DNA of 64,000 nucleotides, taken from positions 1 through 64,000 of the IMG/VR virus record IMGVR_UViG_3300020034_000006; one strand, written 5' to 3'. Below, one piece after another: positions 8,446-34,919 of the stretch; within the stretch, counting starts at the first letter, position 1, and every line of letters starts with the position of its first letter. Origin of the DNA: a virus. Taxonomy: Duplodnaviria > Heunggongvirae > Uroviricota > Caudoviricetes. The notes under the pieces were generated by a model that saw only the letters and a list, made by a program, of their open reading frames with translations, searched no databases and had not been told where the DNA came from. A program made the translations under genes and the position numbers.

Positions 8446-8495
8446 TAACCAGGTGTAAGCGCACTCCAGAGAGTGCGCTTAGATCTAGCGACTAG
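8446..8495 (-). promoter_or_regulatory. Conserved intergenic module copy 4 (TAACCAGGTGT - 10-bp hairpin AAGCGCACTC-caga-GAGTGCGCTT - AGATCTAGCGACTAG)
   Basis: Read directly from the sequence. Upstream of the 8131..8427 start. Confidence 0.45.
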
Positions 8496-8751
8496 CGAAA
8501 GCGTCGATATCGAGCGACCAACTAGCAACGCTCCGACCATCGTGATCTACGGCCGGACGTTCCCCCTCGGACCATCCGCACCATGAGAGTGACTGCGCAA
8601 CATGGTGAACGATCCGAGCGACTTGCTCACGCTCTTCCACAGTAGGAAATTCGGTCTCGATGTCCGGAATATCGATGATGATTCGCACGTGCCTTGCCTC
8701 TTTCAATCGACCAGCGAGCCGCGACGTTCTGACGCGTTGAAGTGAGCGCAT
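8485..8751 (-). CDS. Hypothetical protein
   Basis: 88-aa ORF. First gene to the left of the 900-bp non-coding region. Confidence 0.45.
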   Translation of the reverse strand: MRSLQRVRTSRLAGRLKEARHVRIIIDIPDIETEFPTVEEREQVARIVHHVAQSLSWCGWSEGERPAVDHDGRSVASWSLDIDAFASR

Positions 8752-20771: not shown

Positions 20772-21028
20772 TTCAGTTCGCCACTGATATAGAGAAGGTG
20801 TACGTCCTTCATCGCTTGGAGCAGGTCACCGGAGTCGAGGTAGTGCTTGGAGACAGCGATGCGCACAGGGTGAGCGTCTTGCGGGGAAACAACTGCCTTC
20901 AGCCGGCAGGCCTCTTCCTCGATCTCCATGTGCCGTTTGAACCCATCGAAGTGACTGCAAGCCAGGCTCGCTAACACCAGAGGCAAGCTGCTGATTTCAG
21001 ACCCCATGATCTGCCTCGACTTGGTCAC
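20768..21028 (-). CDS. Hypothetical small protein
   Basis: 86-aa ORF. Confidence 0.35.
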   Translation of the reverse strand: MTKSRQIMGSEISSLPLVLASLACSHFDGFKRHMEIEEEACRLKAVVSPQDAHPVRIAVSKHYLDSGDLLQAMKDVHLLYISGELK

Positions 21029-22379
21029 ACCACCCCTCGATCAAGTCGAGCTGGATGTTGGTGAGGCCGCCCTCGGTCAGCGTCGGCATGTTGCGCGGCC
21101 AGAGGGCAAGCAGCGCTTGCTTGGCGGGAGGGTCCTGCACGATGGAGGAGACCCGCTCGCGCAGGCCCTCTTCGCGATCGGCCGAAGGAGTCGGGACAGC
21201 GTCAGCGGTGATCTCAGTGAAGAGGTGCTTGCCCCTTCCCGAGCGGAGCTGACGCACTTCCATCGACTGGTTCAGGATGCGCCAACCTTCAGCGATGTTG
21301 ACCTTGTAGAGCTTTGGCTCTTCGTCGGTCTCTGCCGGCAACCACATCACGAGAGCGATCTCTCGGTTGAATGGCGGCAAGGGCAGCCACTTCTTGGCCT
21401 GCCTGTCCCAGACGTACTCCCCGTTGGCGTAGCCGGCGAGCTGCTGGGCGATCTTGACCTTGGCGTAGTCGAGCGAGCCGGTTTTGAGGTCGTAGATGAT
21501 CCGTTCCCGCGAGTGGGGCCACTCGGCCCCACGGTCTGTCGATCCGCAGAGACCAAGATCGGGCAGGCAGACAATCGCCTCGATCAGCTCCGGAGGGAAC
21601 TTCAACTGATGCTGAGCGACCGCCGTCTTGTAGCGAATGATCCGGTCACGGTGCTCGGGTGGGATGCGTACTCCGACGTCACCGCGGTCGACCTTCTGTG
21701 TCAGCTTGTGCAGCGTCGTCCCGATGTTCGCCTTGCGGGTAGCAGCGGCCCGCTGCTCGGCCTGTTTGATCACATCGTTGAGCGTGTCCTTGTCGTCAGC
21801 GTTCTCTGCTGACATGGCAAGGTTGACGAGGTCGGGGCTGATGGCGAGTCCATAGGCCACCATCCGCGACTTGTAATCAATGAGGCCGTACTTGTCTTCG
21901 AGAGCGTCCGCCGCTGTCGTCATCCGAGTCCAGTGCATCAACTTGCCGGTGATCGGATGCGGCAGTTCGTAGCGGTTCCATCTGTCTACGGGGATGTTCA
22001 CATCAACATTCCAAGGGTCCTTGAGATCAGCGGGTTCGAGATAAAGACTTGTGTTGCAGTCCTGGCAGGGACGCTCCTTGGTGGCTGGCCATTGCCACCC
22101 ACACGAGGGGCACCGGCAGCTACGGCAGGCGTTCGGGGGCGCGCCTAAGCCGTCCCACTGCCAAGCGCAGCGCTTACACGTTGGGATGTTGTGACGCGGA
22201 TTGACGCAGGCGTCCTGGTTCACGCACTCGGTAGTACCGATAGTGAACTGACACCAGGGCGTGCCATCGGGCGCGTAGGCGCGCTGATCCAATGGTCCTG
22301 GTCGTTTGGCTAGCTCTTCCTCTGCTCGCTGTATCCCGCGAGCCTCAGGGCTCGTGGTTGAAGAGGTAGAGCGGTCCAT
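20997..22379 (-). CDS. RecB/Cas4-family PD-(D/E)XK exonuclease with an N-terminal Cys cluster
   Basis: RIIYDLKTG is the (D/E)xK motif and QLAGYANGEY the QxxxY motif. The N-terminus (CKRCAWQW...CRSCRCPSCGWQW...CQDC) is a zinc-binding region. Confidence 0.65.
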   Translation of the reverse strand: MDRSTSSTTSPEARGIQRAEEELAKRPGPLDQRAYAPDGTPWCQFTIGTTECVNQDACVNPRHNIPTCKRCAWQWDGLGAPPNACRSCRCPSCGWQWPATKERPCQDCNTSLYLEPADLKDPWNVDVNIPVDRWNRYELPHPITGKLMHWTRMTTAADALEDKYGLIDYKSRMVAYGLAISPDLVNLAMSAENADDKDTLNDVIKQAEQRAAATRKANIGTTLHKLTQKVDRGDVGVRIPPEHRDRIIRYKTAVAQHQLKFPPELIEAIVCLPDLGLCGSTDRGAEWPHSRERIIYDLKTGSLDYAKVKIAQQLAGYANGEYVWDRQAKKWLPLPPFNREIALVMWLPAETDEEPKLYKVNIAEGWRILNQSMEVRQLRSGRGKHLFTEITADAVPTPSADREEGLRERVSSIVQDPPAKQALLALWPRNMPTLTEGGLTNIQLDLIEGWCDQVEADHGV

Positions 22380-22430: not shown

Positions 22431-22565
22431 TCAGACGGGCGTCGGCACTCGCTCCGGCTCGCGCTCGGGCTGCTGAACCGGCACTTCTTCCTTCTTCGGC
22501 TCAGGGAACTCCCACGTGGCTGGCACCGAGATGGGCTCTGCCGCGGGCTTACCGATCTGCGTCAT
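22431..22565 (-). CDS. Unlisted small ORF (44 aa, Pro/Glu-rich) with an AAAGAGG RBS
   Basis: Hand-translated: MTQIGKPAAEPISVPATWEFPEPKKEEVPVQQPEREPERVPTPV. Alternative coding in the 345-bp gap between the exonuclease and HicA-like genes. Speculative. Confidence 0.2.
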   Translation of the reverse strand: MTQIGKPAAEPISVPATWEFPEPKKEEVPVQQPEREPERVPTPV

Positions 22566-22724
22566 GGCTGGCCTCTTTCAGTAGAAGTCGTTCGATCAGA
22601 AGGCGGGCGCTGCGCATTACCTTCCTGCACGAGCTACAGCTCGCATGGTCAGCGCCATCAAGTAACCCGGCGACGATGACCCCAGGGTCATCGCCGTACA
22701 GCTCTGATGCGTCTACCGTCATGC

Positions 22725-23216
22725 TCATCGCCTCACCTTCTCGTGTGAGCGAAGTGATCCCCGAGCACGCCCCGCAGCGTCTCGGACACGCCGGTAAACA
22801 ACAGGGTCACGATCGCCGTTGCAGATGGTGTCCTTGAGTACTCGTGCTTCTCCGATAAGCTGGTCGAGGGAGGCCAACGCCTCCTTCTTGGTCACGACCC
22901 GCTGGGAATGCGTCTGGGTCCTGAACCGAGGTCTGTTCCTCTTCTGGATCGGAGCGATTTGAGACCGCAGCGCCGCGTACGTCATCCCGAGCACCTTGGC
23001 GTTCCAGCGCATGAGAACCTTGGTGACCAGGGTTCTGTCATCCATGCAGCGCAGGACGCGGCCGTCGGGCATCTCCATCGAGACATGCGAGCCGGTCTGC
23101 CTGACGAACCGAGCCCCGTACTCGCGCTCGAAGTAGCGGCGCAGCTCGGCTCCGGTGAACGGCTCGACCCCGTCGCTCACGACCCCACCTTGAACAGGCG
23201 GAACCAGCCACCACAT
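22725..23216 (-). CDS. HicA-fold (YcfA-family, mRNA-interferase-like) domain protein with a basic C-terminal extension
   Basis: ELRRYFEREYGARFVRQTGSHVSMEMPDGRVLRCMDDRTLVTKVLMRWNAKVLGM matches the HicA pattern (G-f-x-v-RQ-GSH ... dl-x-g-tl-x-IlkqAGl). About 70 extra C-terminal residues are rich in R/K. First gene of the leftward operon, divergent from the repressor. Confidence 0.5.
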   Translation of the reverse strand: MWWLVPPVQGGVVSDGVEPFTGAELRRYFEREYGARFVRQTGSHVSMEMPDGRVLRCMDDRTLVTKVLMRWNAKVLGMTYAALRSQIAPIQKRNRPRFRTQTHSQRVVTKKEALASLDQLIGEARVLKDTICNGDRDPVVYRRVRDAAGRARGSLRSHEKVRR

Positions 23217-23415
23217 CCCTTGTGGCGGCCGTCCTCGATCGGCAGGTACGTCGTGGGACCTCTAGGAGTGAGGCGCGCTGTACCTGTTGCCTTGCAACGC
23301 CTGCATTGGGCGAGCAGGGACGCGGTGGGAACTCCCCCGGAGCCACGGGGTCGGCGGCGACGCACAGACGGCACTGCTGTTCCCCTCCTCCCAGGTTCGG
23401 TCTCATCGGTACGAT

Positions 23416-23430
23416 GCGATACCGTATCAT
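23416..23430. promoter_or_regulatory. Operator copy a (GCGATACCGTATCAT)
   Basis: 12-bp core CGATACCGTATC (GATAC-N-GTATC inverted repeat) in the divergent HicA-like/repressor intergenic region. Confidence 0.5.
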
Positions 23431-23520
23431 GGCGATTTTCCCTGGTCAAACGCTACGGCCACGGTATGCGGTCGATGTTTTGGCGGAGAGAACGGTGACA
23501 TCGGGCTCGTTGCAAAGCTC

Positions 23521-23537
23521 GATGCGATACCGTATGT
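23521..23537. promoter_or_regulatory. Operator copy b (GATGCGATACCGTATGT), 12 nt upstream of the repressor ATG
   Basis: Same core with one substitution. It shares the extended GATGCGATACCGTAT with copy a. Confidence 0.5.
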
Positions 23538-23548
23538 TGGATCACGAT

Positions 23549-23977
23549 ATGACCATCTCTGAAATGGAGTCCGCGGCAATGACGCTCGACCCGACGCTCG
23601 ACCCGAGTGCTCGCATTACTCAGCGCGGCTTGGAGCTGTCGGAAGCACTAGGCGCGCTTATCGCCGAAGAGCGCAGGGCGCGCAAGTGGAGTCAGACAGA
23701 ACTAGCCGACAAGCTCGGCATGCGTCAGTCCACCCTCGCCACCTACGAGAGTGGAAGCCGTCAGCTCGGGCATCTGCACGTGCACATCATCGAGGCGCTT
23801 GGTGTCGCCTTGGAGATGCCACGGGGCTCGATCCTGGAACGGCTCGGCTTGGTCGAACGCGACATCGACTTCATCACCTTCGTGATGTCTCGACCAGAGC
23901 TGGACAAACGCATGCAGATGGCGTTCTGCGATCTCTACGTGCTCTTCACGGAGAAGGGCGAGTTGCCAGAGGGCTAG
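23549..23977 (+). CDS. XRE-family HTH transcriptional regulator, candidate immunity repressor
   Basis: HTH segment RKWSQTELADKLGMRQSTLATYESGSR. The ATG at 23549 is in frame with the 23222 ORF and lies immediately after operator b. 142 aa. Confidence 0.65.
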   Translation: MTISEMESAAMTLDPTLDPSARITQRGLELSEALGALIAEERRARKWSQTELADKLGMRQSTLATYESGSRQLGHLHVHIIEALGVALEMPRGSILERLGLVERDIDFITFVMSRPELDKRMQMAFCDLYVLFTEKGELPEG

Positions 23978-24532: not shown

Positions 24533-24937
24533 GTGTCGCTCGTGAGCGCTGCTCGGTCGCCTCTAGGTGAGGCCATCCGCTGGGCCTACCAGCAGGCCGG
24601 CCTGAAGCAGAGTGATGTGGCCAAGGCCCTGCACGTCCATCAGACGATGGTCTCGCAGTGGACGGTCGGCAGGGTCGAGCCGAGCCTCGATCAGATCCGC
24701 CTAATCGAGCAATTCTGCCGAGTCCAGATCGGAGCAGTCCTCGCTCGGGCTGGCTACATCTCCGTCGAGGCAGCCCTCGATCACGTCAAGGAGGTCTTCC
24801 GCGCTGGCAGTGTCGTCCCCGATCTCAGCCGCCAGGATGTTCGCGAGATCATGAACCTCGCCCTCCCCGAACACACCAAACTGAACCTCGTCGCCCACCT
24901 GCAAGGCGATAAGGATCTGACCCAGGCTGTCGGGTAG
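24533..24937 (+). CDS. XRE-family HTH DNA-binding protein
   Basis: LKQSDVAKALHVHQTMVSQWTVGRVEPSLDQIRLIEQF is a canonical HTH_XRE pattern. 134 aa. Confidence 0.6.
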   Translation: MSLVSAARSPLGEAIRWAYQQAGLKQSDVAKALHVHQTMVSQWTVGRVEPSLDQIRLIEQFCRVQIGAVLARAGYISVEAALDHVKEVFRAGSVVPDLSRQDVREIMNLALPEHTKLNLVAHLQGDKDLTQAVG

Positions 24938-27665: not shown

Positions 27666-27738
27666 GCGTTTTGGGGCCCTCGTAGCTCAGGGGACAGAGC
27701 GGTCGCCTCCTAAGCGACAGGCCGCAGGTTCGAGTCCT
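27666..27738 (+). tRNA. tRNA-Arg (anticodon CCU, reads AGG)
   Basis: Hand-folded cloverleaf. Acceptor GCCCTCG/CGAGGGC, D-arm GCTC-AGGGGACA-GAGC, anticodon stem GTCGC/GCGAC with loop CTCCTAA, T-arm GCAGG-TTCGAGT-CCTGC, discriminator G. No encoded CCA. Confidence 0.8.
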
Positions 27739-27782
27739 GCCGAGGGCGCTGTGACAATTGTCTTGCCTCTCGGCGGACGGCT

Positions 27783-27795
27783 CGATACGGTATCG
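27783..27795. promoter_or_regulatory. Operator copy d (CGATACGGTATCG, perfect 6-N-6 palindrome), 5 nt upstream of the GTG at 27800
   Basis: Opposite orientation to copies a-c. It shares the GGCTCGATAC flank with copy c. Confidence 0.5.
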
Positions 27796-27799
27796 CATC

Positions 27800-28534
27800 G
27801 TGACGAGACTCAACCAGCTCCTAGGCGTCGAAGCCGGCGTCCGAGACCGCGCTGAACAGGCCCTCGCCGCTGCCAGGTCGGACGTCACCAAGGACGGTCC
27901 CCTCAGCGGCCTCGCTCGCAAGTACGAGCCCCGACAGGAGGGCGGCGAGCAGGTGCCGCCTCAGAGCACGCAGGTGCAGTTGACGGTGAACCACATCACC
28001 GATCAGCTTGCCAAGCACCTCAGCCGCCTGTGGGACGTCACAGCGACGAAGGACTTGACCAACACCGAGGCCAGGGCCGACATCGTCGTTGAGGGCCGCA
28101 CCCTGGTTCCCCAGGTTCCCGCCAGCTACCTGGTGTGGTTCGAGAAGCAGCTCACAGCGCTGCGAGGCGTGCTGGCCAAGCTGCCGGTGCTCGACCCTGC
28201 CGAGATCTGGACCTACGATGAGGCGACCGGGGTCTACCGCACGGAGCCGACGGTCAGCATCCGCCCCAAGAAGGTCTTCAAGAACCACGTCATCGCCGAA
28301 GCGACCCAGTACCACCCCGCCCAGGTGCAGGTCTACAGCATCGATGAGCCCGAGGGTGAGTGGACGACCACCAAGTTCTCCGGCGCCATCTTCGCGACCC
28401 GTCGCCGGCTCCTGGTCGAGCGGATTGACACGCTCATCGAGGCTGTCGCTTTCGCAAGAGGAGAGGCCAACGGGACCACGGTGACTGACCTCGAAGTCGG
28501 TGCCGCGGTGTTCGATTACCTCTTCGCCACCTAG
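27800..28534 (+). CDS. Hypothetical protein (operator-controlled, between the two tRNA genes)
   Basis: 245 aa from the in-frame GTG at 27800. The ORF track's ATG at 27758 would place the operator inside the coding sequence. No recognised motif. Confidence 0.5.
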   Translation: MTRLNQLLGVEAGVRDRAEQALAAARSDVTKDGPLSGLARKYEPRQEGGEQVPPQSTQVQLTVNHITDQLAKHLSRLWDVTATKDLTNTEARADIVVEGRTLVPQVPASYLVWFEKQLTALRGVLAKLPVLDPAEIWTYDEATGVYRTEPTVSIRPKKVFKNHVIAEATQYHPAQVQVYSIDEPEGEWTTTKFSGAIFATRRRLLVERIDTLIEAVAFARGEANGTTVTDLEVGAAVFDYLFAT

Positions 28535-28779: not shown

Positions 28780-28853
28780 TGTGATGTAGCTCAGTTGGAT
28801 AGAGCACTCGCCTTCTAAGCGAGAAGTCACGGGTTCGACTCCCGTCATCTTCA
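28780..28853 (+). tRNA. tRNA-Arg (anticodon UCU, reads AGA)
   Basis: Canonical D-arm TAGCTCAGTTGGATAGAGCA, anticodon stem CTCGC/GCGAG with loop CTTCTAA, T-arm ACGGG-TTCGACT-CCCGT. The acceptor stem shows two mismatches (positions 1-72 and 3-70) as read, hence the reduced confidence. Confidence 0.55.
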
Positions 28854-33392: not shown

Positions 33393-34919
33393 ATGGCTGA
33401 TCTCATCGGTTTCAAGAGGGTGTCCCGCATGGGTAACCGGGACAAGGACGACGACGACTTTCGCTCGGATCAGGAGCAGGAAGACTCGGGCGAGGCCTAT
33501 GCGAAGGCCAACGGCCACCGCATCCTCTACTGGATCGATGAGACCAACTCCGTCTCAGGCAAGACGCTCGATCGCAAGGGCCTGCAAGAGGGCCTGGGGG
33601 ACATCTACGCCGGCAATGCGGACGGCGCCATCGTCATGAAGATGAGTCGCTTCGGGCGTGACGCCGTCGCCGCCATCTCCGAGATCCGCAAGCTAAAGGA
33701 CGCCGGGAAGATCTTCATCGCCGTCAAGGACGGCATCGACACCACCAACGACAGCATCGCCACCCGCATCCTGATGTGGTTCATCGCCACCATGGATGAG
33801 TGGTTCCTCGAAGACATCACCAAGAACTGGGACGACATCACCCGTATCCGGGTGATGGTCGACGGCATCAACACCACCGAGCCCTACGGCTACCGCAAGG
33901 ACCAGATCTTCGATGACCACGGCAAGCGCGTCGGCGGTACCCGCCTCCTGGTGCCCGTGGCGGAGGAGGCTGAGTGGGTCGTCAAGATGTTCAAGAAGCG
34001 CAAGCTCAAGATGTCGTGGCAGAAGATCGCCGACTACCTGAACGAAGAGGGCGTCCGCACCCGGGCGGGGAAGCACTGGACTCACAACAGCGTCAGCGGC
34101 GTCGTCAGCTGCCGCACCTACCTCGGTGAGGTGCGCTCGGGCGACTACGTCAAGGAAGGGGCCCACGATGCGATCGTGGGCCTGGCCCTGTGGACCGCGG
34201 CGAACGCCCACCAGCACACCAACCCTCGCTTCGAGAATATGGACTACCCGCTGTCGGGCATCATTCGCTGCTCGTCCTGCGGAGTGAAGATGGTGGGCCG
34301 CACCAACCGTAAGGCCAACAAGACCTACCGCTACTACGACTGCCGACGTAAGCACGGCTTCGGCAAGTGCCCCAACCCCATGCGGGTGCGGGCAGACATC
34401 GTAGAGGCGGAGATCGACTCGATATTTGTCGAGCGGTTCATCAACGCCTGCTGTGACGTTACGGCCGAGGGCAGCACCACCGGCGTCGACCTAGAGGCCG
34501 CTGTGTTGGTCCTAGAGGACGCCGACGCCGACCTGCACGACTTCCTCACGTCGGAGACCACGGCGGAGCTGAGGCGGGAGCTGGGCCAGAAATACGTGAA
34601 CGAGGGGACGCGGGCTCGCATGGATCGCGTCAAGGTGGCCCGCAAGGCCGTCACCGAGGCGCAGAACGCCATGCTCGGCGTCGAGCTGCCCGAGAACCTG
34701 GCCGAGATCTGGGAGACGCTGGGAGCCCAGGAGCGCCACGTCTTCCTAGACGCTGCCTTCGCCATCATCGCCGCCCACCCCGGCAACGTCGTTAGCTTCT
34801 GGACCGTCAACGAGCCCGGCACCCCCGATGGCCTCCCTACCAGGGGCTTTGAGGTCAGTGAGGCGACACCGATCCCGATGCGTAATGCGCCAGCGGGTGC
34901 CCGGGTGACGACGGGCTAG
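33393..34919 (+). CDS. Large serine recombinase (serine integrase)
   Basis: Resolvase-like N-terminal domain with catalytic-Ser motif FKRVSRMG and VMKMSRFGRD. Recombinase domain. Zinc ribbon CSSCGVKMVGRTN...YYDCRRKHGFGKC. Long coiled-coil C-terminal region. Confidence 0.85.
   Translation: MADLIGFKRVSRMGNRDKDDDDFRSDQEQEDSGEAYAKANGHRILYWIDETNSVSGKTLDRKGLQEGLGDIYAGNADGAIVMKMSRFGRDAVAAISEIRKLKDAGKIFIAVKDGIDTTNDSIATRILMWFIATMDEWFLEDITKNWDDITRIRVMVDGINTTEPYGYRKDQIFDDHGKRVGGTRLLVPVAEEAEWVVKMFKKRKLKMSWQKIADYLNEEGVRTRAGKHWTHNSVSGVVSCRTYLGEVRSGDYVKEGAHDAIVGLALWTAANAHQHTNPRFENMDYPLSGIIRCSSCGVKMVGRTNRKANKTYRYYDCRRKHGFGKCPNPMRVRADIVEAEIDSIFVERFINACCDVTAEGSTTGVDLEAAVLVLEDADADLHDFLTSETTAELRRELGQKYVNEGTRARMDRVKVARKAVTEAQNAMLGVELPENLAEIWETLGAQERHVFLDAAFAIIAAHPGNVVSFWTVNEPGTPDGLPTRGFEVSEATPIPMRNAPAGARVTTG

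Follow-up and report, generated by a model that had tools for sequence, protein, structure and literature searches.

In a window of 64,000 nucleotides (positions 1 to 64,000 of the IMG/VR record IMGVR_UViG_3300020034_000006, a virus of the Caudoviricetes), we describe a minus-strand gene for a two-domain HicA-like protein that lies near the start of a phage early operon, between two small genes whose products carry cysteine motifs. HicA usually figures as a toxin that serves bacteria in defence or addiction and has HicB as its partner. Beside the HicA-like gene of the window no HicB is detectable. By sequence profile and structural model the N-terminal half of its product has the HicA fold, and a Gly-Ser-His motif is conserved; the C-terminal half follows a basic linker and is a helical hairpin specific to the family. 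The gene overlaps both of its neighbours, the gene order is maintained across related loci, and both halves of the protein are under purifying selection. We tentatively propose that the protein works as an active HicA-type endoribonuclease early in phage development, with partners other than HicB. In this proposal the activity as a ribonuclease (RNase), the targets and timing of that activity and what the partners do are inferred.

A HicA-like domain joined to a helical hairpin

A first-pass annotation of this DNA had reported a minus-strand open reading frame (ORF) at 22725..23216, and both the frame and the peptide quoted from it are present. That annotation placed the start at ATG 23216, for a protein of 163 residues. 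The true start is almost certainly GTG 23180 instead, so that the gene (22725..23180, with its TGA stop at 22725-22727) would encode 151 residues. Homologue lengths, the local sequence and the neighbouring gene all lead to this assignment: the eight close homologues (60-100% identity) are 150-153 residues long and begin at the residue equivalent to GTG 23180; a Shine-Dalgarno sequence, AGGTGGGG, stands ahead of this codon; and ATG 23216 falls, in a different frame, within a conserved upstream gene. We number residues from GTG 23180, which puts the numbering of the first-pass annotation 12 higher throughout. The mean ratio of nonsynonymous to synonymous substitution rates (dN/dS) of the gene is 0.24; taken separately, the N-terminal half (0.26) and the C-terminal half (0.21) each show purifying selection.

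Residues 5-75 (22956..23168, minus strand) are predicted to form a fold like that of the double-stranded RNA-binding domain (dsRBD), as in HicA/YcfA: a strand, a helix, three strands and a short one, and two helices. We regard this assignment as secure because family-level Pfam matches, profile-profile alignment, AlphaFold2 and Foldseek agree on it. When the window protein was searched alone, the Pfam family HicA_toxin matched over profile positions 2-32 only (E = 5e-4, 20.5 bits; cut-off 27). Across the family, HicA_toxin was matched by 37 of the 70 aligned members, the set to which all conservation counts below refer, with a best E of 1.7e-6. Aligned by hhalign with the 15 canonical Class 1 HicAs of Gerdes Table S1, the family profile scored a probability of 94% (E = 1e-7); with Class 6 HicAs it scored 84%, and only the N-terminal domains aligned. 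A profile search of the PDB sequences found 1WHZ at E = 0.0012 and several further HicA entries at E = 0.02-0.13.

The structural model points the same way. AlphaFold2, run with the 70-sequence alignment, gave a mean predicted local distance difference test score (pLDDT) of 92.7, and about 98 over residues 10-70. An earlier AlphaFold2 model, built on 9 sequences, served as the query for Foldseek; its top four matches among solved structures were all HicA-family chains (1WHZ, 6G26_E, 6G26_F and 5YRZ_B; probability at least 0.99), and its best matches among viral models carried the names RNA-binding, Toxin or HicA. One weak Foldseek match, a 155-residue 'HicA family toxin' of mycobacteriophage Henu3, could not be located in the poorly annotated record of that phage and was dropped.

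The family sequence RQ-x-GSH aligns on the RQKGSH of canonical HicAs, which places a putative catalytic motif at Gly30-Ser31-His32 (23085..23093, minus strand). Gly30 is present in 67 of 70 members (96%), Ser31 in 48 and His32 in 60 (86%). The equivalent glycine and histidine were mutated to probe the toxicity of Adephagia gp91 in a paper that, with reference to work by Butt (2014) on Burkholderia pseudomallei HicA, calls them important for catalysis in HicA toxins (PMC11373665). The first-pass annotation had recognised the HicA/YcfA fold and its Gly-Ser-His from the letters alone and suggested structure prediction as a check; the alignment of motif on motif and the confident dsRBD-like model bear it out.

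It had also noted a long basic C-terminal extension, and this too is borne out: a basic stretch of about 75 residues comes after the HicA domain. It divides into a linker and a second domain. The linker, residues 76-97 (22890..22955, minus strand), contains proline, has an isoelectric point (pI) of 12.0 and shows no regular structure in the AlphaFold2 model (pLDDT 71-84); P77 is conserved in 64 of 70 members and G76 in 57. The C-terminal domain, residues 98-150 (22731..22889, minus strand; pI 10.5), is modelled as an antiparallel hairpin of two helices, 98-121 and 126-150, with pLDDT of 93-97 over most of its length, dropping to 89 and then 64 in its final two blocks. Between the helices lies the motif G122-x-R124-D125-P126-x-x-Y129 (22794..22817, minus strand), which is about 90% conserved (G in 61, R in 63, D in 64 and Y in 64 of 70). 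The predicted template-modelling score (pTM) is 0.57; both domains are modelled with confidence and the linker with less, and the orientation of the domains to one another is undefined in the model. Hairpins of this kind occur in essentially all members of the family. Comparison by hhalign of the C-terminal region with the Shared Domains of 13 Class 6 HicAs gave a probability of 2%, that is, no relationship, and comparison of the domain with 20 small HicBs gave 1.2%. The GxRDPxxY helical hairpin is a previously undescribed, family-specific domain.

A family from metagenomic phage-like contigs

An exhaustive search with a profile hidden Markov model (HMM) recovered sequences that cluster at 50% identity into 64 representatives; for 41 of these, E <= 1e-10. 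We excluded P0071 (2,575 residues) from the family as apparently spurious. Nearly all of the representatives are 133-216 residues long, and most were matched end to end, sharing the architecture of HicA domain, basic proline-containing linker and two-helix hairpin with a GxRDPxxY loop; the match extends over the two domains in all 64. Repeating the protein search with the family profile added almost no new members.

All members that we found come from metagenomic phage-like contigs. A tblastn search of 50,697 phage records returned nothing for the window protein at E <= 1e-3 and nothing for two distant members at E <= 1e-2, and the GTDB species representatives held no relative of the close family. 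In IMG/VR we found a single contig, of the same phage type as locus L001, and four scans of that database with distant family members found none. PHROGs, PADLOC and NCBIfam gave no meaningful matches for the HicA-like protein or its small neighbours.

A conserved cassette with two small neighbours

To describe the gene neighbourhood we counted nine independent readable loci: the window, L001, L002, L003, L005, L006/L007, L008/L009, L015 and L016. L004 and L012 are of the same phage type as L001 and were counted once with it. The HicA-like gene has GTGA and ATGA overlaps with its two neighbours, and the same arrangement is seen in related loci.

The upstream neighbour (23177..23374, minus strand) encodes a very basic CCHC zinc-ribbon protein of 65 residues (pI 11.8). 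Its start, GTG 23374, is preceded by a Shine-Dalgarno sequence, GGAGGAGGGG, and its stop and the HicA-like start share 4 bp (GTGA). Homologues were independently called at 65 and 64 residues, the C-x2-C...H-x2-C pattern (C24, C27, H51 and C54) is invariant over seven loci, and the dN/dS of the core is 0.10. The gene stands directly upstream of the HicA-like gene in all nine loci, overlapping or abutting it in eight; the copy in L016 had been missed by the gene finder. This basic protein could bind DNA. A 14-nt inverted repeat (23165-23178 and 23340-23353; 93% complementary, 161 nt apart), which runs from the zinc-ribbon coding region to the first HicA-like codons, has no equivalent in L001-L003 and is probably fortuitous rather than a regulatory structure.

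On the other side, an acidic CxxC protein of 59 residues (22549..22728, minus strand; pI 5.1) begins at an ATG that overlaps the HicA-like stop, the ATGA overlap described by the first-pass annotation. That annotation had called this ORF and the next one, of 44 residues, speculative. Both are in fact conserved, and the selection acting on them is purifying. The 59-residue protein is 72% identical to its L001 counterpart and is kept in L001-L003 with a dN/dS of 0.39. The 44-residue protein (22431..22565, minus strand), which is rich in proline and glutamate and whose gene overlaps the end of the 59-residue gene, is also kept in L001-L003 (VPAPWEWPEP), with a dN/dS of 0.20; no family matches it. 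A further ORF of 95 residues with several CxxC pairs lies between these two genes in L001 (10619-10906) and also in L004 and L012; since it is absent from the window, we take it as mosaicism inside the cassette.

A small CxxC protein follows the HicA-like gene in eight of the nine loci. In L015 it is an uncalled ORF in a gap left by the gene caller (8495-8730; ...DPECIICQLRAAV...FPHYT), and in L008 its place is taken by a 187-residue protein of membrane type. The downstream proteins are homologous within the close group; in those of L005, L006, L015 and L016, nothing is shared but C-[LIV]-[IV]-C-[EQ]-L and an end rich in His. Next to the 5.1 of the window, the pI is 4.3-5.5 in four other loci, the proteins of L005 and L006 being acidic, a near-neutral 6.7 in L002 and 7.8 in L016. 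Judged from its sequence, the 59-residue protein has the charge and position that would be expected of an antitoxin-like partner.

Beyond the 44-residue gene comes a 460-residue exonuclease (20997-22379, minus strand; phrog_466, E = 2.5e-63) with relatives in Streptomyces, Mycobacterium and Gordonia phages at less than 34% identity. Its N-terminal 120 residues or so are rich in cysteine pairs and are mostly uncovered by the Streptomyces and Mycobacterium phage relatives, which are annotated as exonuclease or Cas4 family.

Is one of the small neighbours a HicB? The first-pass annotation had seen no adjacent HicB of RNase-H fold, and at the level of sequence, beneath which a HicB-like fold could still be hidden, the statement stands: there is no recognisable HicB beside the HicA-like gene. 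Pfam, HicB families included, matched neither flanking ORF, and hhalign comparison with 20 small HicBs gave probabilities of 0.15% for the 59-residue family and 0.13% for the zinc-ribbon family. A home-made HicB HMM also found none among all ORFs of the window, a search of low power in that the matching HicA HMM missed the HicA-like ORF as well. We found no paper in the literature searched that links HicA to a zinc-ribbon antitoxin. The idea of a 'solo' toxin, raised in the first-pass annotation, gives way to a conserved cassette with a small Cys-motif protein on each side.

Control of the operon

The cassette forms part of a long early operon of co-directional genes and stands behind operator-like repeats. 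The window has three exact copies of a 16-mer, ATACGGTATCGCATCG, with GATACgGTATC as its palindromic core; allowing up to three mismatches, there are 5 matches against 0.39 expected. Two exact copies lie between the zinc-ribbon start and a divergent helix-turn-helix (HTH) repressor candidate. The first (repeat 23412..23432, minus strand; exact 16-mer 23412-23427) precedes the zinc-ribbon start by about 40 bp, and the second (repeat 23520..23540, minus strand; exact 16-mer 23520-23535) is next to the start of the repressor gene. The third (27785-27800, plus strand) comes just after a tRNA-Arg gene and directly borders the GTG start of a DUF7873 gene (27801..28534). These copies are probably operators of the HTH repressor; if the third is one of them, the DUF7873 gene would be co-regulated.

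The repressor candidate itself (23579..23977, plus strand; start uncertain within 23549-23579) is of Cro/CI type, matching Pfam HTH_3 (9e-9) and HTH_31 (1e-8) and a transcriptional-repressor PHROG. A divergent HTH gene occupies the same position in L001, L002 and L003, and HTH regulators are found just upstream of the cassette in all nine loci, with an integrase in five. The N-terminus of the candidate contains a perfect 12-nt tandem duplication (23581-23604; GACGCTCGACCC twice), read as a repeated LDPT unit (TLDPTLDP). A second HTH_3 protein, of 134 residues, is encoded in the same orientation at 24533-24937 (plus strand), and L003 likewise has two HTH genes on that side.

Because the operator-bearing region separates the zinc-ribbon start from the divergent repressor, we place the zinc-ribbon gene first in the lytic operon and the HicA-like gene second. 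The first-pass annotation had put the HicA-like gene first, where a Cro normally sits; that position belongs to the conserved zinc-ribbon gene (23177..23374), which is translationally coupled to it. The lytic strand of the window has no Cro-like gene of HTH type. A promoter scan of the cassette, by a crude consensus search, revealed no internal or separate promoter.

The source element

The window also encodes a large serine recombinase, likely an integrase (33393-34919, plus strand), with Resolvase, Recombinase and Zn_ribbon_recom domains. Together with the Streptomyces, Mycobacterium and Gordonia phage relatives of the exonuclease, this indicates that the source element is a temperate phage of an actinobacterial-type (high-GC) host. 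A megablast search of 20 kb of the window against phages gave no match. An Rfam search found two tRNAs and nothing else. These are tRNA-Arg genes (27676-27749 and 28780-28853, anticodons CCT and TCT) on both sides of the DUF7873 gene, and either could mark an attachment region. The AGG and AGA codons that they read are rare in high-GC hosts.

Discussion

We lean, with some reserve, towards an active HicA-type RNase deployed at the outset of phage development. The composition of the domains, the retained catalytic motif and the position behind operators together suggest an RNA-targeting protein made only upon derepression or infection. Infection or induction would derepress the operon, and the HicA-like protein might then cleave host transcripts, early phage transcripts or both, redirecting expression in a manner comparable to T4 RegB, an endoribonuclease of toxin-antitoxin (RelE/YoeB) fold that is made from an early promoter and inactivates early mRNAs (PMC3014915). 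The hairpin may be a dimerisation module or a docking site for a partner. The co-translated small proteins could restrain or time the RNase in place of HicB, the acidic downstream protein being the better candidate for this role. Phage HicA-like proteins can be strongly toxic, as Adephagia gp91 is (PMC11373665).

Several observations weigh against this proposal. The window protein falls short of the curated Pfam threshold for PF07927. His32 is missing in 10 of the 70 members, so catalysis may not be essential to the function of the family. In L010 (1628-1978) and L011 (1352-1702) the gene behind an HTH_17 gene codes for a zinc-ribbon homologue, but no HicA-like gene comes next; a 78-residue Ala-rich protein and a Prim-Pol region are found there instead. 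The zinc-ribbon protein may therefore be the product of an independent early gene rather than a partner. The 59-residue protein and the small proteins of the distant loci have nothing but a CxxC in common and may not be homologous. Finally, LeBron gp82, an orphan phage HicA, is non-toxic when overexpressed (PMC13148394).

What else could the gene be? A chance ORF, or a chance likeness to HicA, might be read from the Pfam score just mentioned and from the empty PHROGs, NCBIfam and PADLOC searches. Against this stand 64 homologous cluster representatives, purifying selection, a confident AlphaFold2 model and the concurrence of sequence-profile and structure matches, and we regard the idea as already refuted, with a negligible chance of being right. 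The hairpin raises a different possibility, suggested by the first-pass annotation as its second option, beside a toxin-derived regulator and an abortive-infection or anti-host factor: a solo toxin neutralised in cis, the hairpin folding onto the active face of the HicA domain until a trigger releases it. The tail is conserved throughout the family, the length of the linker would allow it to fold back, and single-chain HicA-HicB fusions are known (Gerdes Classes 11-13; PMC10865869). The tail, however, is basic (pI 10.5) like the toxin domain rather than acidic and has no similarity to HicB (probability 1%); with both domains confident and a pTM of 0.57, the model gives no sign that they are docked in one fixed way; and the conserved flanking genes speak against a solo system. 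We consider cis-neutralisation very improbable.

More weight, although still on the unlikely side, goes to a classical toxin-antitoxin or abortive-infection and addiction module of the prophage, in which the HicA-like protein would arrest growth and a labile non-HicB antitoxin, most plausibly the 59-residue protein, would counter it, the pair serving prophage maintenance or the exclusion of other phages. Overlaps of 4 bp are typical of hicAB and hicBA (PMC10865869), a basic toxin (pI 11) and an acidic downstream partner (pI 5.1 in the window) fit such a pair, the GSH motif is retained, and phage HicBA modules exist and matter for lysogeny (Adephagia gp90/gp91; PMC11373665). Yet the cassette lies in a repressor-controlled early lytic operon, right after the operator region, and would therefore be silent in the lysogen. 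The scan showed no separate promoter, neither a DNA-binding antitoxin nor a HicB was detected, PADLOC gave no matches, and L008 lacks the small CxxC protein downstream. Similarly doubtful, in our estimation, is a non-catalytic regulator whose fold binds structured RNA and whose hairpin contacts RNA polymerase, the ribosome or another factor, acting with the zinc-ribbon protein as an early antiterminator or translational regulator. The dsRBD-like fold, the very basic linker and tail, the 10 members without the histidine, and the place in the early operon beside a basic zinc-ribbon protein in the Cro position are consistent with this, as is the known case of a non-toxic orphan among phage HicAs (PMC13148394). 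Glycine (96%) and histidine (86%) are nonetheless kept beyond what RNA binding alone demands, and Pfam, NCBIfam and PHROGs gave no match to a known antiterminator or regulator family.

The proposal of an early phage RNase can be taken further, to a conjecture that we hold possible at best: the cassette of three genes would be a fifteenth, phage-specific context of HicA, its RNase controlled by zinc-binding partners in place of HicB and used offensively, for host shut-off or a RegB-like switch from early to late expression, not for defence or addiction, with the hairpin as targeting domain. A HicA RNase fold is here joined to an undescribed C-terminal domain and accompanied by two small Cys-motif proteins across a family of uncultured actinophage-like elements; the prophage repressor apparently controls the cassette directly, and the lytic programme opens with it. 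Should RNase activity be real, phages would have turned a toxin-type RNase fold to the reprogramming of expression a second time, independently of T4 RegB, and ways other than HicB of restraining HicA would come to light.

Comparison with known systems

Gerdes (2024) catalogued 14 genetic contexts of HicA domains (PMC10865869), to which the cassette adds one: none of them matches it, and the nearest is Class 6. The HicA toxins at large (PF07927; 1WHZ, 6G26, 5YRZ and 4P78) share with our protein an N-terminal dsRBD-like fold, the position of Gly-Ser-His, a basic character and overlapping small genes. The HicA-like protein, in contrast, is more than twice the usual length, with its extra linker and helical hairpin, and its gene has no detectable HicB and seems to belong to the early lytic operon of a phage, not to a self-regulated operon of two genes.

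Class 6 HicAs, which are mostly from Actinomycetes, come closer (PMC10865869). They too are two-domain proteins of about 140-150 residues, in which a linker containing proline leads to a C-terminal domain made of helices; they have an upstream partner that overlaps by 4 bp; and the actinobacterial affinity is common to both. Their Shared Domain, however, has three helices and is found also on some RelE toxins, whereas the domain described here has two helices and a GxRDPxxY loop. Their upstream partner is a Phd/YefM-HicB protein of about 135-157 residues, in place of which we find a zinc ribbon of 65 residues that gave no sign of Phd/YefM or of HicB when compared by Pfam and by profile with profile. 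And the HicA-like gene, unlike those of Class 6, stands among phage early genes.

Among phages, Adephagia gp90/gp91 and LeBron gp82 provide HicA folds in temperate actinobacteriophages, with the catalytic glycine and histidine conserved (PMC11373665, PMC13148394). Adephagia gp91 differs in being a 71-residue single-domain toxin whose bona fide HicB is expressed lysogenically at the genome's right-hand end (PMC11373665), and LeBron gp82 in being a short, non-toxic, single-domain orphan (PMC13148394). T4 RegB is comparable as a functional analogue only: its RelE/YoeB-like fold is unrelated to HicA, and phage and host lineages are unrelated as well. With this said, RegB too is a phage early-operon protein with the fold of a toxin-antitoxin RNase, and its proposed role is the inactivation of mRNA and the re-programming of expression rather than addiction (PMC3014915); by analogy, the HicA-like protein may play a similar part at the start of the lytic programme.

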